NCBI GenBank assembly: GCA_963716565.1 | Contig: OY970318.1 | Span: 580,284 to 644,283 of the forward strand | Direction: 5' to 3' | From: an uncultured Candidatus Saccharibacteria bacterium | GTDB lineage: Bacteria > Patescibacteriota > Saccharimonadia > Saccharimonadales > CAIOMD01 | Length of the DNA stretch: 64,000 nt | Shown: positions 5,818-59,823 of the stretch, piece after piece | Layout of the letters: each line of letters begins with the position of its first letter | How positions within the stretch are numbered: position 1 is the first letter of the stretch | Notes under the pieces: model-generated | What the model was told of the DNA's origin: nothing | The model's database searches: none | What the model saw: the letters and a program-made list of their open reading frames with translations, nothing else | Program-made: the position numbers and the translations under genes

Positions 5818-5842
5818 AAACGGCGATTATCTATTGGCCAAT

Positions 5843-5870
5843 GTCTATCATCTAGCGTCTAGCGTCTACT
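5843..5870. repeat. TCTA-type heptad array, 4 units (GTCTATC ATCTAGC GTCTAGC GTCTACT)
   Basis: Strict 7-nt period. The CTA of the last unit (5866-5868) is the TAG stop of the minus-strand cupin gene. Confidence 0.8.
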
Positions 5871-7096: not shown

Positions 7097-7525
7097 TTAC
7101 TTCTTACACTTATTGCAAATGCCTTCTAAAACGACTCTTTTACGCACAATACGGCTAGCCCCAACCACTTCTTGCGGCAGTGGCAGAGCGTCGTATCGTA
7201 CACATTTAAAGTCCGTTATAGAACCACATTCAACGCAACGAAAATGATGATGGGGCAAAGTGCTAGCATCGTAGCGCTTTGGGTCGCCATGCCCCTCAAC
7301 AGATCCCAGCAAACCCTTTTGCACAAAAGTATTAAGCGTACGATTTACGGTATCAAATGATATAGCAGGGTACTGTTTCTTTAATTTTTGGTAAACGATT
7401 TCAGCGTTGGGATGGCTATAATCGTTGGCTAGCATTTCTAATACAGCCAGCCGCTGCGGAGTAACCCGTAAGCTAGCTGCCTGTAATTTATTAATCAAAT
7501 CTCCGACCATATTAATCATAGTCAT
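7097..7525 (-). CDS. Fur-family metalloregulator (PerR-like by context)
   Basis: RVTPQRLAVLEML winged helix, HHHFRCVECG and CNKCKK zinc motifs, adjacent to the peroxiredoxin. ATG 7525 is preferred over the TTG at 7558. Confidence 0.85.
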   Translation of the reverse strand: MTMINMVGDLINKLQAASLRVTPQRLAVLEMLANDYSHPNAEIVYQKLKKQYPAISFDTVNRTLNTFVQKGLLGSVEGHGDPKRYDASTLPHHHFRCVECGSITDFKCVRYDALPLPQEVVGASRIVRKRVVLEGICNKCKK

Positions 7526-7583
7526 TACTATATTGTAGCTATTCTTATTGTGCAACAAAAAAATAAAGCCCTAAGAGCTTTAT

Positions 7584-7674
7584 TGGCGGAGAGGGTGGGA
7601 TTCGAACCCACGATGCCATTGCTGACATACCGGTTTTCGAGACCAGCGCACTAGACCAGCTATGCGACCTCTCC
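7584..7674 (-). tRNA. tRNA-Ser (anticodon CGA), CCA encoded
   Basis: Acceptor GGAGAGG/CCTCTCC, anticodon loop CTCGAAA, long variable arm, T-loop GGTTCGAATCC. Confidence 0.85.
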
Positions 7675-7752
7675 GTAACAGAGGTAATTATAACACCTTC
7701 GCTTACTTAATCGGAACGGTATAACTATAAATCAGCCACTCTTTGGCGTAAT

Positions 7753-8556
7753 CTATCTTACCTTTTTGGTGAAAACCGGGCCTAAATTTACCGAATATCC
7801 CACTTCTTCAACCTTGCTAAGACCAAGTAGCTTGGCCATTTTGACTGTCGAAAGGCTATCGTTACTGGGTTGGCCAAAAATATTGATATCAAATGGCAGC
7901 TCTTCGTTCTTAACTATTGAGCCAGCACTTAGGCTGATTAATTCATGAAGTTTGGCTCTTTCGCTTTGAGGCAATAAACCCCCAGCGGCTACTTCCATCC
8001 AGGTGCTGGGCGGAGCAGAGCTTTCAAGTATTTCTATTACGTCTTTCATAGCCGAGAAGCCAGGGTGGGCCAACAGGCCACGATGAGAATCTAAAACCTT
8101 AGTCCAGGCGGGAATGATGCAAAAATCGGGTAACTCGGGGCCGTATATTGCATGGGCATCCAGCACCGTTACACCATCGGCTTCTTTTTTAAAATACCTC
8201 TGTTTGGCAAGCCAAACTTTGGGGGCAACAACAATAGACATTACCCCAACGGGGTTTTCGCCTTCGTAGACAGCAAAGCTCTGGCTTCGAACGTTTTCAG
8301 GGTCAAAGGCGATGCCTTCGGCCGTAGAAGCAATGCCAGGCCTTGATTCTAAAACTGCCCTGTAGTCTAGGCCAAGACCAGCGCCTTCTAGCTGAGATAT
8401 CACCTCACCATCGGTCACGGGCACAGCCATTCGGCCTTCTCCGAACCTAGTCATCAATACGGCATCTTCTATCCTGTTGGCTAGTTCTACGTCTCTAAAA
8501 ATAGCTTCGCCGTAATTTTCGGCACCAGAACCTGGATGTTTTTCTGGGGTTATCAT
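7753..8556 (-). CDS. hypothetical protein (267 aa)
   Basis: Long ORF with no competing frame and no motif I can name. Confidence 0.55.
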   Translation of the reverse strand: MITPEKHPGSGAENYGEAIFRDVELANRIEDAVLMTRFGEGRMAVPVTDGEVISQLEGAGLGLDYRAVLESRPGIASTAEGIAFDPENVRSQSFAVYEGENPVGVMSIVVAPKVWLAKQRYFKKEADGVTVLDAHAIYGPELPDFCIIPAWTKVLDSHRGLLAHPGFSAMKDVIEILESSAPPSTWMEVAAGGLLPQSERAKLHELISLSAGSIVKNEELPFDINIFGQPSNDSLSTVKMAKLLGLSKVEEVGYSVNLGPVFTKKVR

Positions 8557-8578
8557 GTCCGTAGTATAGCAAAAAGAG

Positions 8579-8597
8579 GTACCCGACAGGATTCGAA
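8579..8597. repeat. duplicated 3' fragment of tRNA-Arg
   Basis: acccgacaggattcgaa (8581-8597) is identical to 8691-8707 inside the intact tRNA-Arg 110 bp away. The copy cannot fold into a cloverleaf. Confidence 0.7.
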
Positions 8598-8653
8598 AAC
8601 TGCTGGCGCACTGCGCCAGATCGTAGGCTCTAATCTATTGATATAAACCAAGT

Positions 8654-14952: not shown

Positions 14953-15038
14953 CAGCTAAGACTAGCCAAGCAATTACAATTTTACAAGAATTATCAAACC
15001 TTTATTAAAAGCCGGCTCTTTTAGATATCCGCTACTTT

Positions 15039-15211
15039 TTGGCAGCAGAACACCTTCTGCAACCTTTTGTCCGCCAAAAGGTTGCGCCAAAACCGGCAGC
15101 GCTGCCACTAGCCTTGCGAGATTATTATGGTTTTAGCCGGCACTTGCAGAACTCCCCAGCTTCGCTGGGTTCGGCCAGCTCTATATTTAAGAGCGAGCTG
15201 GCAAACTGCCA
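15039..15211. other. GC-rich multi-hairpin non-coding segment (unclassified: sRNA, REP-like element or gene remnant)
   Basis: Hairpins: gcagaa/ttctgc (15045-15060); gcaacctttt/aaaaggttgc (15059-15085, 10 bp perfect); cccagc/gctggg (15155-15169); gccagctc/gagctggc (15174-15202). A possible closing stem is tggcag (15040-15045)/ctgcca (15206-15211). Confidence 0.4.
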
Positions 15212-15315
15212 GTGCATTATTCGTCTAAAACCCTAAAATCTCTTAGGTAGCGCCAGATGCTGGAATAAACCAAGGGATTCCAGGTTAAGAACCTGGAAAA
15301 TGCTATTTATTAAAT

Positions 15316-15357
15316 GTCTTATATCTATCATCTAGCATCTATTGTCTAATGTCTACT
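15316..15357. repeat. TCTA-type heptad array, 6 units (GTCTTAT ATCTATC ATCTAGC ATCTATT GTCTAAT GTCTACT)
   Basis: Strict 7-nt period, located in the comF/hsp20 divergent spacer. Confidence 0.8.
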
Positions 15358-15449
15358 AATTATTTATCCACCTTCTTTGTTCAATCGACTTTGTTGTCGG
15401 TACAATTTTTGGTGTTGTATAAATTATGTTGTCAATGTTACGTCTAAAC

Positions 15450-15479
15450 TTGCTTTAGGGGTTGAACGTCAGCTATAAT
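15450..15479 (+). promoter_or_regulatory. promoter candidate for hsp20
   Basis: TTGCTT (15450-15455), 18-nt spacer, TATAAT (15474-15479). Confidence 0.4.
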
Positions 15480-15538
15480 CTCATTTAAAGACAAAAACGC
15501 AACTTTCATTTAGTTTTAAGCGTGGAGGGTAACAACTT

Positions 15539-23418: not shown

Positions 23419-24342
23419 ATGGACCCAGACGCACCATTAAACAACCAAAACCAAGATGTTTCTAGTCCAAATATGGGCGGGCTGCCCGGGTTCCCGGGCA
23501 TTGCTCCTATGCAAGAGGCCACACAACCCACCGGCCAAACAGGCACCGTTCAGCCTTCTTATACTTCACTATTAAATAAATCGAGACAACAGGGCACCCC
23601 TGCTGTTAGCCACCCAAAAGCTAACCCCAATAGCACCCAGAACACTCTGCTAATAAACGAAATCCGTGATGGGGTAGTTATTATGAACGACGGCTCATTC
23701 CGTTCGGTTGTAATGGCTAAATCTGTTAACTTTGACCTTATGAGCCCCCAAGAACAAGAGTCTGTTGAGTTTGCCTACCAAGGTTTTCTGAACTCTTTAT
23801 ATTTTCCAATTCAAATTTTTATTCATTCGCAAAAGATCGATATTGGCCCCTACATCGATAAACTAAGTAAAATCCGTAGCGAACACGACAACATGCTACT
23901 AGCTATGCTTATGGATGATTACGTAAGTTTTGTTGTTGATGTAGCCACCCAGGCTAATATTATGGATAAGAAATTCTACGTTGTTACACCGTTCTTCCCA
24001 GAAGCCGACACTCAAAAAGCCATTAAAGCCAGTAAGAACTTCTTAACCGGTATATTCGGTCAGAAAGACCAAACTGTAACTATTAACGAAGTCGATTTGC
24101 AAAAGGCCATCCAAGAGCTTCGCAATCGCACACAAGCCATCATGGGCGGCTTACAGCAATGCGGGATACAGTGCCTGCCGCTAGACACCCAAGAATTGAT
24201 TGAGCTCTATTATGATGCCTACAACCCCGATACTGCCACTCGCCAACAGCTTAAAAATTTTGATGATTTAACTGCGCCGGTTGTCACTAAGGGCATGGGC
24301 GTAGCCAGTCGGCCAAATCTAAGACGAGAGCTAGGGGATTAA
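23419..24342 (+). CDS. T4SS protein resembling the N-terminal (non-ATPase) domain of Gram-positive-type VirB4; possible split-gene half
   Basis: It has no TM helix. The segment DGSFRSVVMAKSVNFDLMSPQEQESVEFAYQGFLNSLYFPIQIFIHSQKID recalls VirB4/TrsE N-domains. Its stop at 24340-24342 is 1 nt before the virB4 ATG. Confidence 0.45.
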   Translation: MDPDAPLNNQNQDVSSPNMGGLPGFPGIAPMQEATQPTGQTGTVQPSYTSLLNKSRQQGTPAVSHPKANPNSTQNTLLINEIRDGVVIMNDGSFRSVVMAKSVNFDLMSPQEQESVEFAYQGFLNSLYFPIQIFIHSQKIDIGPYIDKLSKIRSEHDNMLLAMLMDDYVSFVVDVATQANIMDKKFYVVTPFFPEADTQKAIKASKNFLTGIFGQKDQTVTINEVDLQKAIQELRNRTQAIMGGLQQCGIQCLPLDTQELIELYYDAYNPDTATRQQLKNFDDLTAPVVTKGMGVASRPNLRRELGD

Positions 24343-24343
24343 A

Positions 24344-26377
24344 ATGTTTGGCCTAGGCAAAAAACAACAACTAACCCCCGAGCAATATGCCCAACAACAG
24401 CGCCTAAATGAAGAGCTCGAGGTCCAGGCTGCTTTTGCAAAAGGCGAAACTGCCCTAAGGGATTTTATTGCTCCGAGTTCAATCGAGTTCCAAAGCACTC
24501 ATTTCCAAATCGGCACTAGACTTGCCCGCACCTACTATGTATACGGCTACCCCAGGCAGCTCTATACTGGTTGGCTCAGCAGCTTAACCAACATAGACGA
24601 AGTTATTGATTTATCAATTTACGTTTACCCTGTCGAAAGCCGGGTTGTATTAGAAAATCTGCGAAAAAAAGTTGGCCAATTAGAAGCCGGCGTTGCAATC
24701 GATAACGAAAAGGGTCGAGTGCGCGACCCAGGTAAAGAGGCCGCCATTCAAGACGCCGAGGATATGCGCGACAAGCTGCAAGTTGGCGAAGAGCGCTTTT
24801 TTAGGCTTGGCCTGTACTTCACTATTTATGGCGGCGACAAAGAAGAATTAGAATTTGTCAGCCATAAAATCGAGTCCTTGCTAGCCCAGCAATTAGTTTA
24901 TTCTAAGCCGGCCAGCTCACAGCAAGAACATGGCTTAAATAGCGTCATTCCGCAATTCATGGATCAACTACAGATAAGACGTAACATGAGCACCGGTGCT
25001 ATTAGCACTACATTCCCATTTACCAGTGCCGATTTATCTGACGACCACGGCGTATTGTACGGGATTAACATGCACAACTCTGGATTGGTAATATTTGACC
25101 GCTTTAGCCTAGAAAACAGCAACAGCGTGGTCTTTGCTAAGGCCGGTGCCGGCAAGAGCTTTGCCGTTAAGCTTGAGGCTCTGCGCTATCTAATGCTGGG
25201 CACCGAAATTTTTATTATCGACCCCGAAAACGAATACGAAAAGATGAGCGATAGTGTAGGTGGGGCCTACATAAAACTATCGCTGAACTCTCCTACTCGC
25301 ATTAATCCGTTTGAATTGCCCAAGGTCGTTGACGCCGAAGAAGCCGATAACGCATTGCGCGGCAACCTAATTACTTTGCACGGCTTACTGCGCCTAATGA
25401 TGGGCGGAGCCCAGCTACAAATGGTTGGCGGCCAAACCGTACCAGCCTTGAACCCAGTAGAAGAGGCCGACCTAGATACTGCCCTAATCGAAACTTACGC
25501 CAAAGCCGGCATTACTAACGACCCGCTCACTCATCGTTCAACCCCACCAACAATATCCGATTTATACGATACTTTATTGCACATGGGCGGGACTGGTCCG
25601 CAATTAGCCCAACGCTTGCGCAAGTATACCAGCGGCACCTTTGCTGGCATTTTTAGCCAACAAAGCAATGTCGATATTAATAACCCAATGGTGGTATTTA
25701 ACATCCGAGACTTAGAAGACGAACTGCGACCAGTTGCCATGTATATTGTGCTTAATTACATATGGAACAAGACCAAGGCCGATCAACGTCGTCGCCTGTT
25801 GATAATAGACGAAGCCTGGCAGCTAATGAAATACGAAGATAGCGCTAACTTTATGTTTAGCTTAGCTAAGCGTTGTAGAAAATATAATTTGGGCTTAACC
25901 ACCATTTCGCAAGATGTAGAAGATTTTATAAGTTCTAGAATGGGACGAGCAATCGTGGCCAACTCATCCATGCAGTTGCTTTTAAAACAAAGCCCCAGCG
26001 CCGTTGATTTATTAGCCGATGTCTTTAAGCTCACCAGTGAAGAAAGTAAAAGACTAAGCCAGTTCCCAGTTGGTCAAGGGCTGTTCTTTGCCGGGCAAAA
26101 CCATGTACATGTTCAGATATTACCCAGCCCTACCGAAACCAGCATTATTTCTACCACTCCCGGGGAAGTACAACAAGAAGTAGGGCCGGCAGAGATACCA
26201 TTAGATAGTTCCTTTGAAGCAGCCCCCCCGAATGACAGTGAGGCAGCTGCAGCGCCAGTAGCTCCGGTCGTCCAGCCCAAAGAACAGCCAGCCACACCGC
26301 CCATAGCGCCCACAACAACTCCACCTAATCAAGCTAGCAGTCAAACAATATCCATTAACCACGACACCAAAGCCTAA
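24344..26377 (+). CDS. virB4: VirB4-family T4SS ATPase
   Basis: Walker A FAKAGAGKSF, Walker B RRLLIIDEAWQL and the N-terminal IAPSSIEFQSTHFQIGTRLARTYYVYGYP motif. The C-terminus is a Pro/Ala-rich tail. Confidence 0.85.
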   Translation: MFGLGKKQQLTPEQYAQQQRLNEELEVQAAFAKGETALRDFIAPSSIEFQSTHFQIGTRLARTYYVYGYPRQLYTGWLSSLTNIDEVIDLSIYVYPVESRVVLENLRKKVGQLEAGVAIDNEKGRVRDPGKEAAIQDAEDMRDKLQVGEERFFRLGLYFTIYGGDKEELEFVSHKIESLLAQQLVYSKPASSQQEHGLNSVIPQFMDQLQIRRNMSTGAISTTFPFTSADLSDDHGVLYGINMHNSGLVIFDRFSLENSNSVVFAKAGAGKSFAVKLEALRYLMLGTEIFIIDPENEYEKMSDSVGGAYIKLSLNSPTRINPFELPKVVDAEEADNALRGNLITLHGLLRLMMGGAQLQMVGGQTVPALNPVEEADLDTALIETYAKAGITNDPLTHRSTPPTISDLYDTLLHMGGTGPQLAQRLRKYTSGTFAGIFSQQSNVDINNPMVVFNIRDLEDELRPVAMYIVLNYIWNKTKADQRRRLLIIDEAWQLMKYEDSANFMFSLAKRCRKYNLGLTTISQDVEDFISSRMGRAIVANSSMQLLLKQSPSAVDLLADVFKLTSEESKRLSQFPVGQGLFFAGQNHVHVQILPSPTETSIISTTPGEVQQEVGPAEIPLDSSFEAAPPNDSEAAAAPVAPVVQPKEQPATPPIAPTTTPPNQASSQTISINHDTKA

Positions 26378-26502
26378 TCTAGGAGTCGGTTAATTTGCTC
26401 AATCAACATTTTTGCCCACAATCACAGTAAGAGAACTCTGCCACCTGGGTAGGCTCACAGGCTATCCAAAAAACACCTTAACCCCTATAATATAAATTGC
26501 TT

Positions 26503-29500
26503 ATGCCTGTATACGATTCGGAGACCAATGAGCCCAAAAAGTCCGCTACTAAAAGCGATGACATAGCTCAGAAAGAAGAAGCTGCAAGCGGAGATCCTGC
26601 CTATACCCAAAACGCAGGCGCTGGTGCAGAAAAAGAGCGCGACTTTTTTAAAAACGAAGCAGCCAATAAGCACAATGCTTCGGTTGGTGGCTTTAAGGGT
26701 AAGCTAAGTGGGTTTAGCTCAAAAAAAATAATAGCTGGTGGTGTGGGTGCGGGTTTAATAACGGCATTGATAGCCGTAGGCAGTCTATTTGGCTTTTTAA
26801 ATGTTTTTAAGCTTGAACATATCATGCAAAGCATTGAACAGCGCGCCTTTTCGCGCTACCAGGTATCTATGGACGGACGCTCCGACAGATGGCTTAGATC
26901 TTATATGCGGGCACGAGTTGGAGAAATCGACACAGTAGACGGAAAAACCGTAGATGTGAATCAACGCAGGAGTATATTTTTTACAGCCGACAAGGTCGAC
27001 ACCAATCACCCTTTTACAGATTGGTATAGAACACTCCGTACTTCAAAATTTGAAGCCGACCTGCTCAGGGAATACGGAATAAGCTTTAGTGGCGTAGCTA
27101 CTCAAAATGGTGATCTAGTTCAGTTTAGATCTGCGCGAATAAATTTTAGCCCCAAAGATGGCATTGATATTGACATGGGAGATTTTAACCAACAATTTAA
27201 AGACAGGTTTGGTACTGATTTTACGATTGACACTCTAAATGACCCTAATGGCGACAAGATGAGGTTTTTGAGCGAAAGATTTGACGTCGAAATAGAGAAA
27301 TTCGATAGCAACAAGACGGCTCGCCGGGCAATAAAAAAGGCCGTTAACGAAAAGACCCACTCATGGCAGGTTGTAAAACGGCGACACATTCGTAAATGGA
27401 TTCAAAATAAGACCGGTGTTCGTAGCTGGCGCTTTTTTGACAAAACGCGCACCAGAATGGAAGAAAAGATTATTTCAATACGTAATCGAATAATTAGACA
27501 AATGTTCCCAGATAGTACTGTTTTGGGCAAGTTTATTCAGTGCGTCTTTGGAGTCACCGCTTGCCGACCCGCCGCCGACCCGGGCAATCCAGACACCAAT
27601 GCCGATACCTCCAGCAACAGCAGCAACCGAAGAATGAGCGACAGACAAGAAGAATACCCAGACCCAAACGATCCAAACAAAACATTAACGTCAGGCGCCG
27701 ACGACGCCCTGGATAGGGTTGCAAAAGAAGGCACCGAGATTTTAGGTGAAAATCTAGCCGAAGATGGCACTCAACCTGCTGTACAAAAAGTACTATTAAT
27801 GGGAGCGAAGACAGAGGCGGCAAAGGCCGTCTTGGACGTTGCGAAGAAACTCATACCATTCGCAAATATAATTGACATGGCCGAAACGCTTAATGTAATA
27901 AACAAAATGTTTAAGGCCCACACTATTACAAAGTTAGTTGCTACCGCCAGGGGCGTTCAAGCCTTGGCGCTCTATACAACTTATCAGACGGCAGCTGATG
28001 AGTTAAAAGCCGACTCCACCGGGACGACGAACGAAGAAGTATCCGCGCTTATGACTACAATCGATTCCGTAAGTAAAAGTGAGGGCTGGGTCGGCGCTAT
28101 TGATTCCCCAGATTCAAGTGCCGAGGCCGAGGGAACTGTAGCATTCGCTAAGGATCGTAATGAATACTGCAGCGATACACACCAGGCCGCCATAGCAGCC
28201 AATCCTATCGCCTACGATGATGAATTCGCTTATGTGTGCGATGATAAAAAGATTGGCGGTTCAAGTTTGGGGGCGTCTATAGAATCCTGGTGGAATAACA
28301 GCGTTGGGCTTGCTATCAGTGGTTTATTGACTTTTTGGAACTCGCAGGGCAATGTTGGAAGGTGGCTCTGGAGGGGGCTCAACTGGCTACTTGGTGAAGC
28401 TGTCGGGATTATAATCGATGGATTCAAACTACTAGTACCTGGTTCTGTTGAAAAATGGGTTGGGGACACTATAGATTCCATGTTTGGTTGGGTAATAACC
28501 AAAATCCTCTTGTATATAGGCGCCGGGCCAATGCTGAACGGCGACGAGCCAAGCGGTGTTTTTGCCAACACTATAATACAAGGGGCAACCTACGCCGCCG
28601 AATCTTCATCCCGTAATAGCGGTGCCTCTTTGACTAATGACGAATCAGAAAGCCTAGCTATTGCAATGGCAGATCAATACTACGAAGATTATTACACTGA
28701 TCAAAGTCTTTTTGGCAGATATTTCGCCCTAGACAACCCAGACTCGGCTATGTCAAAAAGCCTATTCGCTTCTATAGAAAACAACACCGTAAACAACGTT
28801 GCCGGCTTATTCAGTCGGCTAGTCAAGACTGTTGGCAAGTTGCCTATGAGTTTCTTTTCTAAACCAGCAACCGCTGGCTCAGAGAGTGCCTACGCGGCAG
28901 CCAACTTTGCCGGCATTGACACCTTCGACTTCCCCCAACAGTGCTACGACCTAGACCCCCTAACTATGACCCCTCAACAAGCCACTAATGTTAATAACAT
29001 CCTTTCTCAGTTTGATGTGGAACAGTTCAGCGCAGACGAACTAACATGGGACATCTTAAATGATAGCGAGGCTTTTTATAATAAAATGTATTCCAAAATA
29101 AGAGACAGATACGGCGATGACTTTAATACCGATGCCTTTATGGACGTTATAGAGCTAAAGGGCTTCGACCCAAGAAACTATGGCGTCTTTGATGGATTAA
29201 GAACCGGGGAAATCGAGGACTTTGTTGGCCTTGGCGATGTAGAGATCATTGCCAAGCAAGTTTATAACTGTGCCGCCCTAGATACAACCGTCCGCGGTGG
29301 GCTTGGCTATGTTTATGGCTACGATAGCGACAATGGCCTGTCGGCGAACGATCAAAGCACCCCCTCAACAGGGAGTTGCGAAGGATTAACATTAGTTGGC
29401 CCAGAAAGCGGGCACGGAGGCAGCCAAGTAGAAGGCCACGACCAATATCAATTGCCAGCCGATAATCCCGGTTATTACATTTACCCCAACAACGCCGCCC

Positions 29501-32033: not shown

Positions 32034-32708
32034 ATGACAAGAATAATAAACAAACGAGGCCTCACAGTAATCACACTGGTAATTGTTATTATTGTTGCCG
32101 CACTGGTAGCATTATCATATTATTTGTCTTTTAAGAACGTTTTGCTATCTCCAACAGACGGCAACACAATAACCGTTCTGCAAAACAACCAAGAAATAGC
32201 ATCGACGTCTACGTCCAAAACAATGAAATTAAAAGCCGGACAATACTGTTTTAAGTTTTCAAAAAGCTCTGATTATCAAGAAATAACTGTGTGCAAAAAC
32301 ATTAATGAGAGCCAAGAGGTTGTATCTACCCTACTTAGTTACACCGCCAGTTATCTTAATGGGTTGTTGGCAGCCGAAGACCCCGGCATACAGTCCGCCC
32401 TATTAACCGTCGACAACATAAATGATTATCAGATTACAAATAAGCAGCTCTGCGTTAGGGGCGACTGGGCCGCTATTAGGCTCATGCCAAATGCCTGGTA
32501 CGACCCTAGCGTGCCGGCTGATTACTTGCCGCGACCGACTAACCCAAATAACACACTAGATATTGTTAAGGTAATCGCTCAAAAAGTTGATGGCCAATGG
32601 CAGATTGTGGCTGGGCCATCAGTTGTGTTCAGCATAGAAGACAACCCTAGCATCCCAGAAGAGGTTATTAGGGCAGTAAACCGCCTTGGCCTTGGCCTAG
32701 CCCAGTGA
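32034..32708 (+). CDS. membrane-anchored protein, unknown function (last gene of T4SS operon)
   Basis: N-terminal TM helix LTVITLVIVIIVAALVALSYY with a beta-rich ectodomain. Its 3' end overlaps the recF 3' end by 12 nt. Confidence 0.55.
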   Translation: MTRIINKRGLTVITLVIVIIVAALVALSYYLSFKNVLLSPTDGNTITVLQNNQEIASTSTSKTMKLKAGQYCFKFSKSSDYQEITVCKNINESQEVVSTLLSYTASYLNGLLAAEDPGIQSALLTVDNINDYQITNKQLCVRGDWAAIRLMPNAWYDPSVPADYLPRPTNPNNTLDIVKVIAQKVDGQWQIVAGPSVVFSIEDNPSIPEEVIRAVNRLGLGLAQ

Positions 32709-33764
32709 TATTCGGTTAATCGACTGCATAAACTCTTTTTGTACGACGTCGGCGTCGGTTGTGGTAATTATTGTCTGATAACTATTTAGGTGCTGAGTTA
32801 AGGTTTTACGACGCGAGCCATCAAGTTCACTAAACACATCGTCTAGCAACACCAAGGGCTTTTGGTCACGGGCCGCCTCAATTAGCCTAAGGGCGAGTAA
32901 TTTTAGGGCTATCACTAACGTACGAGTTTCGCCACGCGAAGCTACTGCGCCGGCTGGTTTTTTGTTTATTAAGACCTCAACGTCTTCGCGGTGCGGCCCA
33001 TAAGTAGTAAAGCCCCTAATTAAATCGATATCTATATTATTTTCTAGCTGGCGCAGCATGGTCGATTCGTAGGCGCTGGCCGATAAATCTGTGTCGTATT
33101 TTAGGCTAACGATTGTTTTGGCTTTAGCTATCTCACTATACGTAGAAGATAAACCGTTGTTTAGTCTATCGATTAAGCTAACCCGTGACGCCACGATCTT
33201 GCCAGCCAATTCACTCAAACGCACGTTCCAGGCAAATATCTGGGCGTTGGTGGTTTGCCGACCGGTTTTTAGTAAATGATTGCGCTGGGCCAAAACCCGG
33301 CGGTACTTCTGAGTAACAGACCCAAAGTCTGGCTGAGTTATCACCAAGATTTCATCTAAAAAATTACGCCTCGTTTCTGGCGAGCCGGTTAGTAGTCGCA
33401 TGTGCTCTGGTTCAAACAATATTACTGGCAGTTTTTCGTTAAAATTAAGCCGTTTTTTAGGCTTCTCATGAATCTCATAAACTTTTTCTACGACATCGCT
33501 AGTCTTAGTAAGCTTAACGACCCTAGTGCCATCTACCATATCGCCATCAATTCGAGCCCAGGCTTTATTGTTAGCAATAACGTCGCCAAAACCCGCCCTA
33601 TAAGATGAGTTGCCGCACAATATTAATATTGCCTCTAATAAATTAGTTTTACCGCTAGCATTTGGGCCAACCACAATGTTTACCGCTGGCGCCAGCTCAA
33701 CAGCAAAGTCTTTATAAGATCTAAAATTCTGCAACCGCAGCGCCGTAAAAGCGGACGATTTCAT
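32697..33764 (-). CDS. recF: DNA replication/repair protein RecF
   Basis: Walker A GPNASGKTNLLEAI, signature region and LVLLDDVFSELD Walker B; downstream of dnaN. Confidence 0.9.
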   Translation of the reverse strand: MKSSAFTALRLQNFRSYKDFAVELAPAVNIVVGPNASGKTNLLEAILILCGNSSYRAGFGDVIANNKAWARIDGDMVDGTRVVKLTKTSDVVEKVYEIHEKPKKRLNFNEKLPVILFEPEHMRLLTGSPETRRNFLDEILVITQPDFGSVTQKYRRVLAQRNHLLKTGRQTTNAQIFAWNVRLSELAGKIVASRVSLIDRLNNGLSSTYSEIAKAKTIVSLKYDTDLSASAYESTMLRQLENNIDIDLIRGFTTYGPHREDVEVLINKKPAGAVASRGETRTLVIALKLLALRLIEAARDQKPLVLLDDVFSELDGSRRKTLTQHLNSYQTIITTTDADVVQKEFMQSINRISLG

Positions 33765-33773
33765 AAATCGTCC

Positions 33774-33808
33774 TTAGATGTTAGACGATAGACGCTAGAC
33801 GATAGAAA
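33774..33808. repeat. TCTA-type heptad array in inverted orientation, 5 units (TTAGATG TTAGACG ATAGACG CTAGACG ATAGAAA)
   Basis: Strict 7-nt period. 33780-33794 is the exact reverse complement of 34222-34236. The array overlaps the recF SD. Confidence 0.8.
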
Positions 33809-33809
33809 G

Positions 33810-34181
33810 CTACAAATCATTACCGACCCGATGGGCTCTTAAAAGGCCGTTGAGCAACTTATGGGCCGTATCGGCCTGTTTTAATACCAAAAGATAGTTA
33901 TCTTCATTAATGTAGCTAAGGTCTTTGGCTATTAATAATTGGCTCTTTATTTCATAAAGAGAGCCCGAGGCCATTGTATAAAAATGTTCCTGATCGGCTT
34001 TTGAGGATCTGCCAAAACCCTCTGCAATATTAGACACAACAGAAATCGATGCCCGTCTTAATTGAGAGGTCAAAGAATAAACTTCTGCTGCAGGAAAGTT
34101 GGCAGAACTTTTATATATTTCGAGTGCCAGCCTATGAGACTCTTGCCAGACCTTCAAATCTTTAAAATCCACAATCATCAC
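33810..34181 (-). CDS. four-helix-bundle protein (23S rRNA intervening-sequence protein family)
   Basis: Family signature LKVWQESHRLALEIYK ... LTSQLRRASISVVSNIAEGFGR. Confidence 0.85.
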   Translation of the reverse strand: MMIVDFKDLKVWQESHRLALEIYKSSANFPAAEVYSLTSQLRRASISVVSNIAEGFGRSSKADQEHFYTMASGSLYEIKSQLLIAKDLSYINEDNYLLVLKQADTAHKLLNGLLRAHRVGNDL

Positions 34182-34201
34182 AATAATTTTAACATTTAAA
34201 A

Positions 34202-34236
34202 TCTATCATCCAGCGTCTAACGTCTATCGTCTAACT
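34202..34236. repeat. TCTA-type heptad array, 5 units (ATCTATC ATCCAGC GTCTAAC GTCTATC GTCTAAC)
   Basis: Strict 7-nt period. The CTA at 34231-34233 is the dnaN TAG stop. Confidence 0.8.
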
Positions 34237-35322
34237 CTTGAGCGGCATAACAAGGTAGGTGCTATCGGCAGATTCGCTATCAGTCACAACACAAGGCTCA
34301 AGCTTACCATTAAAACTAAAGGTCACGTCCTTACCGCTCAACACACTTAACACATCCAGCAGATAACGTGAATTTAAAGTAACTTCACCAGTACCCTGAA
34401 TGGTTGCCGGGGCGCTGGAAGTATTTTCGCCAAGCTGTGAGGCGATAGATGTAATACTGATTTGTTTCGTAGACTCATCAACCTTTAGGGTTATACTGCC
34501 AGCACTTTCGCGGGCAAACAAACTAGAAACCTTTGTAATGGTAATGAATTCGCTGCGATCTACTGTAGCTGAAATATTAAATTTGGTAGGTATGAGTTTA
34601 CGATAGTCGGGGTAGGTGGCATCGATTAGTCGGCTAACTAGCTCTAAATCACCAGCCCTGAATAACACCTGCTGGCTATCGGATATCACTTCAATTTCTT
34701 CTACGCCCTCTGGCAAAATACGCAGCAATTCTTGTAGGGCCATGGCTGGTACTAATAAAGATATCTCTTGGGTTGTTTTGATTAGTTTCTTTTCGGCTAA
34801 ACGGTAGCTATCGGTCGCTGCCCCATACAAATAGCCTTTTTGGGATTGCAACAACACTCCCGTTAAAACTGGACGGGTTTCATCCGAAGATGCGGCAAAC
34901 ACTACCTGTGCCAAACTGCGACACTCTTTAACTGGCAATGTCCAACTTTGGCCTTTATCAATTTCGGGCACAACTGGGTATTCGTCGGCAATAATGCCAT
35001 TGATTGTGGAGCGATACTGTTCGGTACTAATGTGCAGCTTGTGTTCTTCGAGCTCTAAGTCGAGCACTCCGCCAGGCAAACTACTAACATATTCTTGCAT
35101 CAAACGGGCGGGGACGGTTATGGCGCCATTACTATGAACCTTAGAACCGATCTTTTCGGTGATGGCAATCTCTAGGTTGGTAGCCGATAAGCTTAGTCTA
35201 TTATCGACAGTTTTTAATAGAATGTTATTTAAGATTGGTAGGGGGTTTCTGCTAGATATAGCTATTCGGGCAACATTGTTTAGTGCCTTGGCCAGATTTT
35301 CTTGGGTGACTTGCAGCTTCAT
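34231..35322 (-). CDS. dnaN: DNA polymerase III beta sliding clamp
   Basis: Three-domain clamp length (363 aa), typical N-terminus MKLQVTQENLAKALNNV..R..LPILNNILL, downstream of dnaA. Confidence 0.9.
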   Translation of the reverse strand: MKLQVTQENLAKALNNVARIAISSRNPLPILNNILLKTVDNRLSLSATNLEIAITEKIGSKVHSNGAITVPARLMQEYVSSLPGGVLDLELEEHKLHISTEQYRSTINGIIADEYPVVPEIDKGQSWTLPVKECRSLAQVVFAASSDETRPVLTGVLLQSQKGYLYGAATDSYRLAEKKLIKTTQEISLLVPAMALQELLRILPEGVEEIEVISDSQQVLFRAGDLELVSRLIDATYPDYRKLIPTKFNISATVDRSEFITITKVSSLFARESAGSITLKVDESTKQISITSIASQLGENTSSAPATIQGTGEVTLNSRYLLDVLSVLSGKDVTFSFNGKLEPCVVTDSESADSTYLVMPLKS

Positions 35323-35544: not shown

Positions 35545-36930
35545 CTAAACATTTAGGCGCTCCCTAATTTCTTTTAGATTATCTTTGAGCAGTGTGTCAA
35601 AGTGCAGTTCTCTTTCTATTTTGTCAACAGAGTGGATGGCGGTAGTGTGGTCTTTGCGGCCTAGTTCGTGGGCGATTTTAGGAAAGCTCAGATGCAGTTC
35701 GGTCCTAAGCAAGTACATGGCAATTTGCCTAGGTACCACTATGTCTTTATCGCGCTTGGGGCTTAGTATGTTTTCAACACTTAACTGAAAAAATTTAGCC
35801 GTGCGTTCAATGATTTGCTTAGCCGAAACTCTTTTCGGTCGAGCGCGCAAAGAGCCGAATAGTCCAACGGCCACGCCTAAATCAGGTTCTAGGTTGCGCA
35901 TCTCGCAAAAGGCTAATAGGTGGTTTAGGGCGCCCTCTAGTTCGCGGATGTTGGTTTGGACGTGGTTGGCTAAGAATTCCACCAAAGGTTGGTCTAGCGC
36001 AATGCCGCGCTGGCTGGCTTTGTTTTGCAAGATGGCACAACGAGTTTCGAAATCTGGTGAACCGATATCGGCAATCATGCCCCATTCAAAGCGCGATCGC
36101 AGTCTTTCTTCTAGGGTTGGGATAGCTTTGGGCGGCTTGTCGCTACTGATTATAATTTGCTTATTGGCCTGGTGTAGGGCATTAAAGGTATGAAAGAATT
36201 CTTCTTGGGTTTTTTCTTTGCCGGCAATAAACTGCATATCGTCTACAATCAAAACATCGGCGCTGCGGTAATGCCCAGCAAAGTCGGTAATTTTTTTGTA
36301 ACGGATGGCATCTAAAAATTCTTGCACAAACTGTTCGCTGGTAACGTAAACTACGCGGGCATTTTTATTATTGGCTAATATGCCGTTTCCAACCGCTTGG
36401 ATTAAGTGGGTTTTGCCCAATCCCACACCGCCATAAACAAATAGTGGATTATATTTAGTGCCCGGATTTTGAACAATTGCCTGGCAGGCGGCATAGGCTA
36501 GCTCGCTACCAGAACCAACAATAAATGAGTCAAAGGTATAGCGCTCATTCAGGCCCTGACGGTAAGAGTGGGTAACCGATAGGGCGCCATTGTTGCCTTG
36601 TTTTCCGTTTGTTTCTTCAACTGGCTGGGATAAGATGACGACCTCTGAGTCGTCTTCGGCGGTTCGTTTGGGTGAAGGCGAGGTAGCCGAAAAGATTTTG
36701 AATTCAACATCTAGGTCATTAGCGCCGTTTTTTTGCATTAAGTCCAGAATCATCTGTTTGTATTTAAGCTCTAGCTGTTGCTTGGCAAAAATGTTCGGTA
36801 CGCCAACAATTAATTGATTATCGCTACGCCGTAGAACGCGGGTATTTTTAAACCACGTGATGTAGCTACCCCTAGAAACGGTTAGCTCAATCTCACCCAA
36901 TATTGCCTGCCATAAGGTATCGTCTCGCAT
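35545..36930 (-). CDS. dnaA: chromosomal replication initiator DnaA
   Basis: AAA+ Walker A GGVGLGKTHL, Walker B LIVDDMQF and the C-terminal DNA-binding helix HTTAIHSVDKI. Confidence 0.95.
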   Translation of the reverse strand: MRDDTLWQAILGEIELTVSRGSYITWFKNTRVLRRSDNQLIVGVPNIFAKQQLELKYKQMILDLMQKNGANDLDVEFKIFSATSPSPKRTAEDDSEVVILSQPVEETNGKQGNNGALSVTHSYRQGLNERYTFDSFIVGSGSELAYAACQAIVQNPGTKYNPLFVYGGVGLGKTHLIQAVGNGILANNKNARVVYVTSEQFVQEFLDAIRYKKITDFAGHYRSADVLIVDDMQFIAGKEKTQEEFFHTFNALHQANKQIIISSDKPPKAIPTLEERLRSRFEWGMIADIGSPDFETRCAILQNKASQRGIALDQPLVEFLANHVQTNIRELEGALNHLLAFCEMRNLEPDLGVAVGLFGSLRARPKRVSAKQIIERTAKFFQLSVENILSPKRDKDIVVPRQIAMYLLRTELHLSFPKIAHELGRKDHTTAIHSVDKIERELHFDTLLKDNLKEIRERLNV

Positions 36931-39452: not shown

Positions 39453-39725
39453 TTATTTATAAACTTGGTTGTGCGTGCCAACGTCTAAAAAGATTATTGA
39501 GTCTTCGGTTTCTTCGTAGATTACCCTAATATCACCAGTTACAGAAAACGCTCGGCAGCCCTTATGTTTTCCCAGTAGGGGATGGTCATTCAGTAGTCTA
39601 CTAGCACGGCTACTCACAAATACCGATAATTTAAGGTCAAATTTCTCTGCCAGCTTTTTGTTGGGCTTAATGCGAATAATGTAGCTTTTATCAAACTTTT
39701 TAGAAAAAACTATTTGTTTTGGCAT
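39453..39725 (-). CDS. type II toxin, RelE/ParE superfamily
   Basis: 90 aa with a pattern ending LLGKHKGCRAFSVTGDIRVIYEE...VGTHNQVYK. It lies 5 nt downstream of a small antitoxin-like gene. Confidence 0.7.
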   Translation of the reverse strand: MPKQIVFSKKFDKSYIIRIKPNKKLAEKFDLKLSVFVSSRASRLLNDHPLLGKHKGCRAFSVTGDIRVIYEETEDSIIFLDVGTHNQVYK

Positions 39726-39730
39726 ATCTA

Positions 39731-40024
39731 TTAAAGATTATGCAGATGTTCGGTCATTTCTTCAATGGTTGAATAAGTCTTTAGCTTACCATCTTTAAGG
39801 TCTTTTTTAGCTTGTTTGGCAGCTTTATTCAATCTGGCAGCAGCAACGTCGGTCGGTTCTCCCCAGCTGTCGTAGCCAAAGTCTACGTGGCGATTTTCGG
39901 TTTCGGCTTTGGCCCAAAAGCGCACATAAGCTTGGGCCGAATCGAATCCAAGATCTTTAGCGCGAACTTCTAATTTGTCGCGAACAAGCTTATCGATAGG
40001 CACCTGTAATTTAACGCTATTCAT
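39731..40024 (-). CDS. type II antitoxin (ribbon-helix-helix-like N-terminus)
   Basis: 97 aa with N-terminal VKLQVPIDKLVRDKLEVRAKDLGFDSAQAYVRFW, upstream of the toxin. Confidence 0.6.
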   Translation of the reverse strand: MNSVKLQVPIDKLVRDKLEVRAKDLGFDSAQAYVRFWAKAETENRHVDFGYDSWGEPTDVAAARLNKAAKQAKKDLKDGKLKTYSTIEEMTEHLHNL

Positions 40025-40098
40025 AATACCAGAATAGTATCAAAATAGTATCAAAATGTCAACAGCCCTTGTGTTGAAATCCCCACTTCTGGGGCTTT

Positions 40099-40133
40099 AT
40101 CTATCATCTATCATCCATCGTCCAACATCTATT
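40099..40133. repeat. TCTA-type heptad array, 5 units (ATCTATC ATCTATC ATCCATC GTCCAAC ATCTATT)
   Basis: Strict 7-nt period. The CTA at 40129-40131 is the TAG stop of the 798-aa gene. Confidence 0.8.
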
Positions 40134-44882: not shown

Positions 44883-44929
44883 TCTCTGTATTATGAGCCA
44901 AAAGTGCCTTTGTTCCAAACTCTAACATC

Positions 44930-44971
44930 CAGCATCTATCATCCATCGTCTAGCTTCTATTGCTTAAGCGT
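44930..44971. repeat. TCTA-type heptad array, 6 units (CTCTAAC ATCCAGC ATCTATC ATCCATC GTCTAGC TTCTATT)
   Basis: Strict 7-nt period in a divergent spacer. Confidence 0.8.
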
Positions 44972-46002: not shown

Positions 46003-46037
46003 ATCCATCATCTAGCCTCTATCGTCCATTGTCTAAC
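46003..46037. repeat. TCTA-type heptad array, 5 units (ATCCATC ATCTAGC CTCTATC GTCCATT GTCTAAC)
   Basis: It fills the entire spacer between the stop at 46033-46035 (the CTA of the last unit) and the start codon at 45999-46001. Confidence 0.8.
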
Positions 46038-51633: not shown

Positions 51634-52554
51634 ATGTCGAACTATACAGAGAACCAGATGACAGAAGATCAAAATCATGCCTGGAGAAAACTACTAAAAT
51701 TTATTCCAAACGATAAACAAGTTTTAGATATAGGCTGTAGTTCTGGGAGCTTGGGGGAATTGTTGGCGAAACAAAGAGGCTGCGTAGTGGATGGTGTAGA
51801 GCCAGATAAAGAAGATGCAGGCTTGGCATCAAAAAAACTGCGCAAAGTCTGGAACTCCGATATAGAAACTGCCGTAAAAGACATACACGATAAATATGAT
51901 GTGCTAATTTTCGCAGACGTATTAGAGCACTTGTTGTATCCAGGCAAAGTCCTGTGGGCAGCAAGAAGCTTATTAAAGCCGACAGGAAGAGTGGTGTTTT
52001 CTGTTCCGAACATGGCTCATATATCCGTAAGGCTAGCTTTACTAGCAGGAGATTGGCGACATACAGAAACTGGGCTACTTGATAAAACGCATTTGCACTA
52101 CTGGGACATAGACACGATTAAAGACGTGTTTAAGGAAGCTGGTATGAATTTAGTGGAATTAGATGCGGTGACGTATAAATATCCAGAAAAGTTAATACAG
52201 GACAGGCTCAATGACATTGGCTTAAGGGCCGACAAGAAGGGCCTTAATTTACTGGCAAGCAAGGAGGCCTCAGCATTTCAGATAATTGGATTTGCGGAAT
52301 TTTCTAAGTCCAGACACAGTAAAGCCATACTGCCCGAGCCTAGATTACAAAAAGATATCAGTTATCTGGCGCAATATTTAGAAGATCATATAAAGAACTT
52401 AGAAGAACACATAAAGAATCTGGAAGAATACATAAGGAATTCAGAAGAGCATACTAAGCAAATAGAGCGTCAATTAAAAGACATAAAGAGCTCTCGCTAT
52501 TATAAATTAAGGAAAAACGTGTCGTCTTTTAAGTCAAAGTTCACGAAGCGCTAG
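51634..52554 (+). CDS. class I SAM-dependent methyltransferase with C-terminal coiled coil
   Basis: VLDIGCSSGSLG motif I; C-terminal YLEDHIKNLEEHIKNLEEYIRNSEEH repeats. Confidence 0.75.
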   Translation: MSNYTENQMTEDQNHAWRKLLKFIPNDKQVLDIGCSSGSLGELLAKQRGCVVDGVEPDKEDAGLASKKLRKVWNSDIETAVKDIHDKYDVLIFADVLEHLLYPGKVLWAARSLLKPTGRVVFSVPNMAHISVRLALLAGDWRHTETGLLDKTHLHYWDIDTIKDVFKEAGMNLVELDAVTYKYPEKLIQDRLNDIGLRADKKGLNLLASKEASAFQIIGFAEFSKSRHSKAILPEPRLQKDISYLAQYLEDHIKNLEEHIKNLEEYIRNSEEHTKQIERQLKDIKSSRYYKLRKNVSSFKSKFTKR

Positions 52555-58077: not shown

Positions 58078-59823
58078 CTAAACTGCAATTCTATTTTCTG
58101 CCAAGCCGTAGTTAACATAGTGCAAATAGTACAGCCATAGGTCTTGTCCAAAAGCAGCCTGTAGATCAATGTAATTTGCCCTATATGAGCTTACATTAAA
58201 ATCTGCATTACCTTGGCGACCCTCGCTCATGCCATAGTTTATAAAATGGCTGAGAGCACCGGTATCATCTAGTCCAAAAGCAGTCTTTATGTCTGGGTTG
58301 TTCTTCTCGTAATAGTCAAAACTGTAGACAGCGGAATAGTCGACTCCGTTGTACATACTTGTTCCGCCTAGGTAGTCACCAGTAGCGATACGTCCTTCGG
58401 ACTTACCATACAGAATATAGTGCACGGCATATGCTCGGGCATTATCACCATACACTCGACGTAAATCATAGTATCTATTTTTATATGAGCTTACATTAAA
58501 ATCTGCATTACCTTGGCGACCCTCGCTCATGCCATAGTTTATAAAATGGCTGAGAGCACCGGTATCATCTAGTCCAAAAGCAGTCTTTATGTCTGGGTTG
58601 TTCTTCTCGTAATAGTCAAAACTGTAGACAGCGGAATAGTCGACTCCGTTGTACATACTTGTTCCGCCTAGGTAGTCACCAGTAGCGATACGTCCTTCGG
58701 ACTTACCATACAGAATATAGTGCACGGCATATGCTCGGGCATTATCACCATACACTCGACGTAAATCATAGTATCTATTTTTATATGAGCTTACATTAAA
58801 ATCTGCATTACCTTGGCGACCCTCGCTCATGCCATAGTTTATAAAATGGCTGAAGGCTAGTATTTGATCTTCACCAAAAGCAGCTTCTATGTCGGGATTG
58901 TTATCTAAATAATATTGTGGATCAAAGACAATAGAGTAGTCTATCCCACTACATGTAAATGCAAGAGTGTTACCGAACCAGTCATTAAAATAGCGCCAAA
59001 AATTACGGTTGCCATAAGCGCTGCAGCCATCACCCGTACCATACAAATTAGCCAATGCCGCATCGTTTGGTGTATATGGAGTATATTTATAAAGCACCGC
59101 AGTAGCTTTATTTTCTATATATACCGACTTCGTGGCGCAGACTGCGTTTGGACTATAATATATATTTACTAAACCAACTCCAAAAGGGCCCCAGGCGCCT
59201 GGTACGGTTATGCCGTTCATGTCATTGCGAAATTGCCATGCAGCATCGTTAACTTGTTGGTAAAAACTAGAAGAACACGTTGCGATTCCGCCACTATCGT
59301 CACAGGCGTAGCCGGTCGCTTTTTCATACTGTGGCAATATCGGCCAGTCGTCAGTAACAAGCCCTTGCTCTTTTTGCAATAAGACAATTAATGCCTGGGG
59401 GTTTATGTTGTACTCTTGGCCTGCGTCCCATATTATTTGAGCCGCGCTTATGCCTCCCACTATAGAAGCTGGCGTTCCGTCTGGATTATATTGTCCGTAG
59501 TTGTTCGTTTTAGCTGTTGGGTTCTCTTGATAGTCTTTTAAACAAGTGTATGGCGGATAATAAGTGTTGCCGCTACTTGGGCTAGTATATATAGGATGAT
59601 CGATCCAGCAGGTGGGCATTTTTGAATTAAGAAATGCTTGAATTTGCTGCACGGTCATAGAATTTTTATTGGTAAATATTGCATCATCAATTATTCGACC
59701 AGCTTGGAAATCACCGCCCGATAAGGCGGAAGCCTTGCTGTCTAAATAAGAGCCAATTAGTAAAGTAAAGCCGAGGCTTAAGGCCACAAGAATTATTGAT
59801 AATTTGTGGATTTTTTTTGTCAT
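58078..59823 (-). CDS. secreted protein: N-terminal lysozyme/glucosaminidase-like region (weak call) plus C-terminal array of ~50-aa Y..DL..FG..HY..YG..EGR repeats
   Basis: Signal peptide; ISAAQIIWDAGQEYNINPQALIVLLQKEQGLV resembles muramidase/glucosaminidase helices. The C-terminal half is repetitive and contains the perfect 300-bp DNA repeat. Confidence 0.6.
   Translation of the reverse strand: MTKKIHKLSIILVALSLGFTLLIGSYLDSKASALSGGDFQAGRIIDDAIFTNKNSMTVQQIQAFLNSKMPTCWIDHPIYTSPSSGNTYYPPYTCLKDYQENPTAKTNNYGQYNPDGTPASIVGGISAAQIIWDAGQEYNINPQALIVLLQKEQGLVTDDWPILPQYEKATGYACDDSGGIATCSSSFYQQVNDAAWQFRNDMNGITVPGAWGPFGVGLVNIYYSPNAVCATKSVYIENKATAVLYKYTPYTPNDAALANLYGTGDGCSAYGNRNFWRYFNDWFGNTLAFTCSGIDYSIVFDPQYYLDNNPDIEAAFGEDQILAFSHFINYGMSEGRQGNADFNVSSYKNRYYDLRRVYGDNARAYAVHYILYGKSEGRIATGDYLGGTSMYNGVDYSAVYSFDYYEKNNPDIKTAFGLDDTGALSHFINYGMSEGRQGNADFNVSSYKNRYYDLRRVYGDNARAYAVHYILYGKSEGRIATGDYLGGTSMYNGVDYSAVYSFDYYEKNNPDIKTAFGLDDTGALSHFINYGMSEGRQGNADFNVSSYRANYIDLQAAFGQDLWLYYLHYVNYGLAENRIAV
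58182..58853. repeat. perfect 300-bp tandem repeat, 2.24 copies, in frame inside a CDS
   Basis: 58182-58481 is identical to 58482-58781 by line-by-line comparison. 58782-58853 repeats the first 72 bp before diverging. Confidence 0.9.

Follow-up and report, generated by a model that had tools for sequence, protein, structure and literature searches.

Knowledge of intervening sequences (IVSs) in 23S rRNA goes back to about 1990. Those that bear an open reading frame occur in Leptospira, Coxiella burnetii, Brucella and Xanthomonas (PMC4990558, citing Ralph & McClelland 1993 and Afseth 1995). The IVS of Coxiella burnetii, 428 nt long (428-444), is described as a selfish element in helix 45 of the 23S rRNA. 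It contains an S23p ORF with a poor Shine-Dalgarno sequence, its terminal inverted repeats make up a 28-bp stem inside which RNase III cuts, and three to four tandem GACAGAT heptamers, strain-variable in number, lie upstream of the ORF (PMC4990558). The origin and mobility of IVSs and the role of S23p are still regarded as open questions (PMC4990558), and the S23p domain has been called functionally uncharacterized (bioRxiv preprint 10.1101/2024.02.27.582315). Avd and the S23p family belong to one superfamily (PMC10053308), and four-helix-bundle genes of the 23S_rRNA_IVP type have been reported as cas-associated (PMC3936711).

Heptamers have also been described outside rRNA genes. Intergenic TAACTGA heptamers, which often overlap upstream stop codons, are present in Beggiatoaceae, Cyanobacteria and Bacteroidetes (MacGregor 2015, PMC4679880); the terms 'helix bundle', 'S23' and 'intervening sequence' are all absent from the text of that paper. 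Within our incomplete coverage of the literature, the Coxiella case was the only published link found between S23p genes and heptamer repeats. Nor was a paper found that describes inverted heptad arrays around S23p genes as a general rule, which, given the same incomplete coverage, is absence of evidence only.

We analysed a 64-kb stretch of DNA from a Saccharibacterium (TM7), referred to as the window, whose DnaN finds its best matches in Saccharimonadales genomes. On the minus strand the gene order is dnaA, dnaN, a small ORF and recF, and the surrounding ORFs encode a lysozyme/amidase, RnpA, YidC, Jag and hypothetical proteins. No rRNA was found in the window, and tRNAs were the sole known RNA families returned by Rfam. 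The locus comprises the following features, listed in the direction of transcription:

35545-36930, minus strand: dnaA, host gene
34231-35322, minus strand: dnaN, upstream host gene, co-oriented with the small ORF
34202-34235, minus strand: 5' arm, with sense heptads TAGACGA, TAGACGT, TAGACGC, TGGATGA and TAGA..; upstream boundary of the homology with a second cassette copy, L082
34179-34201, minus strand: spacer of degenerate heptads TAGATTT, TAAATGT and TAAAATT, kept in the related copies L081 and L082
33810-34178, minus strand: four-helix-bundle (4HB) gene of the S23p/PF05635/TIGR02436 family, 122 aa from ATG 34178, or 123 aa from the alternative GTG 34181
33774-33806, plus strand: 3' arm of inverted heptads, TAGAY on the plus strand and RTCTA on the coding strand
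32697-33764, minus strand: recF, downstream host gene, co-oriented

The original prediction had placed a small four-helix-bundle gene between dnaN and recF, and this proved to be correct. The ORF matches PF05635 (23S_rRNA_IVP) over its full length with E 2e-37 and 128 bits (cutoff 33.8), and TIGR02436 ('four helix bundle protein') with 115 bits (cutoff 24). Counted from the ATG, its product of 122 aa has the length of the database proteins. An AF2 monomer model displays four helices with a pLDDT of 95.8. It is structurally closest to Xcc0516 (2GSC; TM 0.90-0.97, rmsd 0.6 A, 39% identity, phmmer E 3e-18), followed by BT_0352 (2RLD) and then by Avd (PDB 4DWL, 8UBE), which shares the four-helix-bundle fold at TM 0.74-0.86. 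The dN/dS ratio of the gene is 0.07-0.11, indicating purifying selection, so the protein is maintained by selection, and from this we infer that it is functional. Given the Avd-like pentameric fold expected for it, binding of nucleic acid is plausible.

Three other affiliations of the gene were considered and rejected. It scores 19.5 bits against the Avd model NF033474, where the cutoff is 80, and neither a reverse transcriptase nor template/variable repeats lie nearby, so membership in a diversity-generating retroelement (DGR) was dismissed. PADLOC gave no match that would place it in a defence system. As to carriage by phages, 2.9 million viral contigs yielded one weak relative, which has no arrays.

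The gene is flanked by arrays in inverted orientation, each of about five GNTAGAY heptads, as had been predicted. The two arms (33774-33806 and 34202-34234) are 85% complementary over 33 nt, and a second register (33780-33806 against 34209-34235) is 89% complementary over 27 nt. Tandem Repeats Finder reports period 7 on both flanks. An exact 15-mer, GTTAGACGATAGACG, is located at 33780-33794 and its reverse complement at 34221-34235; the original prediction was right about the exact match and misplaced the second copy at 34222-34236. The TAG stop codon of dnaN (34231-34233) is itself the opening unit of the 5' array. The spacer leads over to the gene; its last heptad, TAAAATT, is followed on the coding strand by ATTGTG and then by ATG 34178. 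Past the 4HB stop codon, 3 nt precede the 3' arm, and the cassette ends downstream at the outer end of this arm, ...CGTCTAA. With five heptads per arm, the whole unit measures 460 bp (window 33774-34235). Its flank inverted-repeat score is 20.5, against a maximum of 11.5 among 634 pairs of segments matched in geometry and taken from other parts of the window and a 99th percentile of 12 among 1556 control ORFs of related loci. A chance origin of the inverted flanks is excluded.

Next, we compared the cassette with its relatives at other sites. The L082 copy is 82% identical in nucleotide sequence over 467 nt, corresponding exactly to window positions 33774-34233, and its protein is 84% identical. 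It lies in another genome, between a glycosyltransferase gene and a hypothetical gene, in flanks unrelated to those of the window, and beyond the outer ends of the arrays there is no further homology. More distant copies with the same arrays occupy the junctions efp|tlyA-like (L084) and beta-lactamase|ychF (L086). For the same genome pairs, the synonymous difference (pS) of the 4HB gene is 0.50-0.53, whereas dnaN, recF, GT4 and a 158-aa gene reach saturated values of 0.71-0.82. By this measure the cassette is younger than the DNA around it, with the reservation that some 85 synonymous sites underlie the low dS of the 4HB gene, part of which could be due to constraint. These comparisons show a discrete cassette, mobile in evolutionary time, and they bear out the original proposal of a unit of about 460 bp that ends at its arrays and is, or has been, mobile: it recurs at other sites, its homology ends at the arrays, it is younger than the host genes, most relatives have an empty site and unrelated clades of the gene occupy the one junction (see below).

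The original prediction had also raised the matter of target-site duplication, and here the outcome was negative. No duplication was detected in the alignment of the window with L081 and L082 or against empty junctions, no excision footprint was found there either, and a transposase was seen neither in the unit, whose sole ORF is the 4HB gene, nor near it. A duplication of TA (TA|GAC...GTC|TA) would be indistinguishable from the repeat itself.

The dnaN-recF junction is empty (gap of 60 bp or less) in 52 of the 76 related genomes that have both genes, so the empty-site alleles that the original prediction proposed to look for dominate among the relatives; the 52 include the nearest species representatives (DnaN identity 79-80%), with gaps of about 22 bp. 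A 4HB gene is present at the junction in 10 genomes, and inverted heptad arrays surround all 10; the sister genome L081 has the gene there as well. At least three clades can be distinguished among the 4HB genes at this junction. Clade A, to which the gene of the window belongs, is 42-52% identical to cyanobacterial genes as opposed to 29-38% to clade B. The array unit likewise differs, being TAGAYNN in the window clade and AAAGTNN in the second Saccharibacteria clade. Because unrelated 4HB clades are found at one junction, repeated independent arrivals there have to be assumed.

By the original prediction, arrays at this junction in genomes that lack the gene would speak against the mobile cassette, and this is partly the case: L011 has a heptad array without cargo, in L007 inverted arrays enclose a GIY-YIG gene and in L003 an AbiEi/AbiEii pair. 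Other cargo at the junction consists of PIN with Phd (L066, L067) and HEPN with nucleotidyltransferase/MNT (L078). The dnaN-recF junction is an insertion hot spot in Saccharibacteria (L001-L080). Inserts of unassigned nature were noticed at the same junction in L055 and L070.

To see the cassette in its family, we assembled 95 non-redundant members from Saccharibacteria loci, 80 metagenome loci and plasmid copies of cyanobacteria, Riemerella and Azospirillum. The flank inverted-repeat score has a median of 13 in these 95 genes versus 7 in the 1556 control ORFs; 59% of the genes lie above the control 99th percentile and 77% above the 95th, while in about a quarter to 40% of members the inverted repeat is not significant. 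The self-match of the 5' arm is 0.75 at lag 7 and 0.24-0.32 at every other lag. The heptad unit itself varies by lineage (GAATTNN, AGTATNN, AAAGTNN, TCAGGAG, GGAGATA, GGGAAAA and others), and the units of one arm have their counterparts in the other in corresponding order. Stop codons in three frames were tried as an explanation of period 7 and rejected; the difference between 5' and 3' arms is mild. The median length from arm to arm is 441 bp, and the 5' arm starts at a median of 7.5 nt past the first base of the upstream stop codon. The 4HB gene is co-oriented with the upstream neighbour in 74 of 76 cases and with the downstream neighbour in 68 of 80, and in 36 of 41 elements purines predominate on the sense strand of the 5' arm.

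Heptad-built flanks were also identified in Picosynechococcus, Trichormus, Nostoc, Riemerella and Geminocystis. Cassettes of cyanobacterial plasmids are located inside operons with co-oriented neighbours, namely between cmr2 and cmr3 (L090), between cas6 and cas4 (L089) and among conjugation genes (L091, L093). L089, from a Pseudanabaena galeata plasmid, is exceptional in having direct arrays, (CTAAAAG)x16 upstream and (CCAAAAG)x10 downstream. One element alone, the Azospirillum copy L095, resides inside a 23S/LSU rRNA gene, and it too has heptad-periodic inverted arms; none of the other 4HB loci displays 23S homology. The link to rRNA intervening sequences drawn in the original prediction is strengthened by this element and by the Coxiella IVS, which have the same heptad-based stems. 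Inverted, lineage-specific heptad arrays enclosing about 440 bp behind a co-oriented stop codon are the build around most members of the family, an architecture that appears to have received no general description so far.

Two members deserve separate mention. On the Geminocystis plasmid (L177) the cassette at 26300-26950 has arms GGGAAAA/TTTTCCC, a solo array with the same core is located at 23696-23722, 2.7 kb from the cassette, and the annotation places a reverse-transcriptase gene at 7500-8633. On the metagenome contig Ga0209541_10142243 (L106), 2.2 kb or less separates a 4HB cassette that has long arrays from a GIY-YIG-like ORF.

Heptad arrays occur in the window without the gene as well. 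Five such solo arrays, unpaired and composed of the unit of the cassette arms, were detected:

5830-5868, minus strand: solo TAGAY array
15324-15355, minus strand: solo TAGAY array
40099-40132, minus strand: solo TAGAY array
44921-44959, minus strand: solo TAGAY array
46011-46035, minus strand: solo TAGAY array

All five are situated at the 3' ends of genes, in four of them the first unit opens with the TAG that terminates the upstream minus-strand gene, and two are followed by a hairpin. The suggestion that the cassette had spread the arrays found no support, as no 4HB remnant is present beside any of the five; for the same reason they are not recently decayed cassettes. One array is shared between genomes, lying behind an orthologous glycosyltransferase gene at 46011-46035 in the window and at 2428-2500 in L082. 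In L082 it is followed by the 4HB cassette, in the window by a cupin-like gene of 170 aa, and there the array has no inverted partner. Since arrays exist without the gene or around other cargo, they are not simply the ends of a 4HB vehicle, and to this extent the mobile-cassette reading is only partly supported. The solo arrays may be landing pads, scars or sites of a trans-acting factor.

Several other segments of the window attracted attention. The array at 15324 is part of a 0.5-kb region without a long ORF (14953-15480) that also contains a hairpin and GC-rich paired segments and, even at E <= 0.1, matches nothing in Rfam. Two small minus-strand ORFs (39480-40030) follow downstream of the array at 40099, the second of which resembles, by eye, a putative RelE/YafQ-like toxin. 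A 300-bp unit is repeated 2.2 times with 100% identity at 58182-58853, inside the minus-strand ORF 58078-59823, and must have arisen by duplication very recently or else be an artefact of assembly. A 21-bp tandem repeat (52376-52448) is present in 3.5 copies with 78% match close to where ORF 51634-52554 ends.

What might the arms do in a transcript? In the predicted fold of the sense RNA, a stem of 22+4 bp closes the ORF in both the MFE and the centroid structure (z-score -4.3). The gene for RNase III, rnc, was not found within the 64-kb window. No Shine-Dalgarno sequence precedes the 4HB gene, and a scan for consensus promoters and intrinsic terminators gave no match at the cassette. The spacer nevertheless contains TGnTAAAAT seven nt before the ATG (TG at 34194-34193, TAAAAT at 34191-34186), on which the promoter scan was silent because no -35 hexamer accompanies it, and the motif is conserved in the form TGnTA(A/G)AAT. 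We infer that it is a candidate extended -10 box, from which a leaderless 4HB mRNA would start; such a transcript would be without the 5' arm.

Leaderless starts seem to be common in this group, because a TACAAT box is common before recF: it stands 6-9 nt ahead of the recF ATG in most relatives (e.g. L002, L004, L009, L058, L060 and L061), which suggests a leaderless recF mRNA. The box is absent before recF in the window and in L081, both of which bear the cassette. An SD-like AAGGA (33771-33775) that precedes recF in the window overlaps the outer end of the 3' arm, and recF is now probably dependent on read-through there.

Taken together, we consider it likely that the unit is an IVS-type selfish cassette, of the 23S-IVS kind, set in a protein-coding operon directly after the end of dnaN. 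When transcription reads through from dnaN, the arms are predicted to pair over 22 bp or more, and the ORF would be looped out from this stem. By analogy with rRNA IVSs, RNase III would cut this stem, whereby the insert would be removed from the host transcript or separated within it. Such removal would explain how elements of this kind are tolerated inside rRNAs and operons. Several observations speak against this reading: mismatches of the G:U type are not enriched in the stems, a start at the candidate -10 box would give a transcript lacking the 5' arm, arrays occur alone or around other cargo, L089 has direct arrays, and a sizeable share of the family has no significant inverted repeat.

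An unlikely alternative is a non-autonomous DNA transposon, MITE-like and ORF-bearing, whose arrays are terminal inverted repeats (TIRs) for a transposase encoded elsewhere and in which pairing of the arms is a by-product. Inverted termini, discrete boundaries, occurrence at several sites, a patchy distribution and an age below that of the host genes would all be accounted for in this way. The sense stems point in the same direction, for they contain no excess of G:U pairs (30 G:U versus 40 A:C mismatches in 56 stems), so that complementarity could be kept at the level of DNA, as DNA-level symmetry predicts. The purine-rich sense strand of the 5' arm (36/41), on the other hand, points to a strand-specific constraint and argues against a transposon, as do the lack of a transposase in or near the unit and of a target-site duplication. 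A classical TIR transposon would not be expected to share the orientation of its upstream neighbour in 74 of 76 cases, and the position after stop codons is atypical for cut-and-paste. Moreover, the tandem-heptad termini vary in sequence by lineage while their period remains constant, and the same architecture, when present in rRNA, is a demonstrated RNase III stem (PMC4990558).

It is also conceivable, if rather improbable, that the arrays are sites of post-transcriptional control by the host, similar to TAACTGA/STRR repeats, with the 4HB protein as their putative binder; on this view, what the cassette contains is a regulator gene that controls itself, and not a selfish element. The five solo TAGAY arrays at gene 3' ends, four of them beginning at the stop codon, fit this proposal, and so does the like solo array of the Geminocystis plasmid. 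Similar heptamers between genes, overlapping upstream stop codons, are on record (MacGregor 2015, PMC4679880), and strong purifying selection together with the fold of Avd, an RNA binder in DGR complexes, would suit a regulator. Against this, most close relatives are without the 4HB gene at dnaN|recF, and the proposal leaves unexplained the inverted second arm, the transfer of the whole unit, the low dS and the recurrent insertion at one junction. Host control is at the same time compatible with the IVS-type reading and does not exclude it.

We regard as very improbable that the 4HB gene is nothing more than a small member of the dnaA-dnaN-recF operon, passed on vertically and lost many times, its repeats serving as a local terminator or stabiliser. 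The same junction is indeed occupied in the sister L081 genome and in a number of Saccharibacteria that are more distant, but the genes found there come from unrelated clades, the pS of 0.50-0.53 contrasts with 0.71-0.82 for the neighbours, a copy 82% identical, arrays included, exists at another locus, and no intrinsic terminator was found at the cassette. An inverton, with the inverted repeats around a segment of about 400 bp acting as invertase sites, is scarcely credible, as the gene has one orientation in 74 of 76 cases, no invertase lies nearby, no promoter-switch logic is apparent and both orientations at one locus were never seen among the loci compared.

If the cassette is of the IVS type, as we favour, then IVSs appear not to be a speciality of rRNA and to represent a general cassette of about 440 bp, placed behind stop codons in operons of Saccharibacteria, cyanobacteria and Bacteroidota, its stems always composed of 7-nt units. 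The cas-associated 'four helix bundle' genes (PMC3936711) may, in an alternative reading, reflect insertion rather than function. Intergenic heptamer arrays that had no explanation are thereby tied to a gene family. Recently moved copies with defined ends make RNase III processing, binding of the protein to the repeats and mobility directly testable. A more far-reaching and speculative idea, which we think doubtful at present, is that the S23p pentamer reads its own heptad arrays and drives array-guided homing. The solo arrays would be landing pads able to pair in any register, the intermediate could be RNA (compare Avd and the reverse transcriptase in DGRs), and rRNA IVSs, 4HB genes scattered over cas, conjugation and housekeeping operons, and STRR/TAACTGA repeats would all belong to one hitherto unrecognised class of mobile elements.

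Finally, the cassette can be set against the known systems it resembles. With MITEs and TIR transposons it shares shortness, inverted termini, discrete boundaries and a patchy distribution; it differs from them in its conserved non-transposase ORF, the lack of target-site duplication, its fixed orientation and the tandem-heptad build of its termini. The TAACTGA/STRR heptamers are similar to the 5' arm and to the solo arrays, all being tandem, forward-oriented 7-nt units in intergenic positions, often over a stop codon; the TAACTGA/STRR heptamers occur just before the next start codon as well. Those are unpaired direct arrays without a linked gene, whereas the cassette joins an inverted partner array and a 4HB gene in one transferable unit.

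The closest resemblance is to the 23S IVSs. Both carry an S23p/PF05635 ORF in sense orientation to the host transcript, both are of similar size (428-444 nt in Coxiella and 460 here, in a class of about 0.4-0.75 kb), and in both a stem of 20-30 bp derived from terminal inverted repeats encloses the ORF. Tandem heptamers in the 5' part and a Shine-Dalgarno sequence that is poor or absent are likewise common to the two. RNase III cleavage has been demonstrated for the Coxiella IVS and is proposed for the cassette by analogy, and the Coxiella ORF is decaying while the 4HB gene of the cassette is under strong purifying selection. A 23S IVS lies inside 23S rRNA, in helix 25 or 45, whereas the cassette lies between protein-coding genes. 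Since all structural points but location match the Coxiella IVS, we class the unit as an IVS-type cassette of an mRNA operon.
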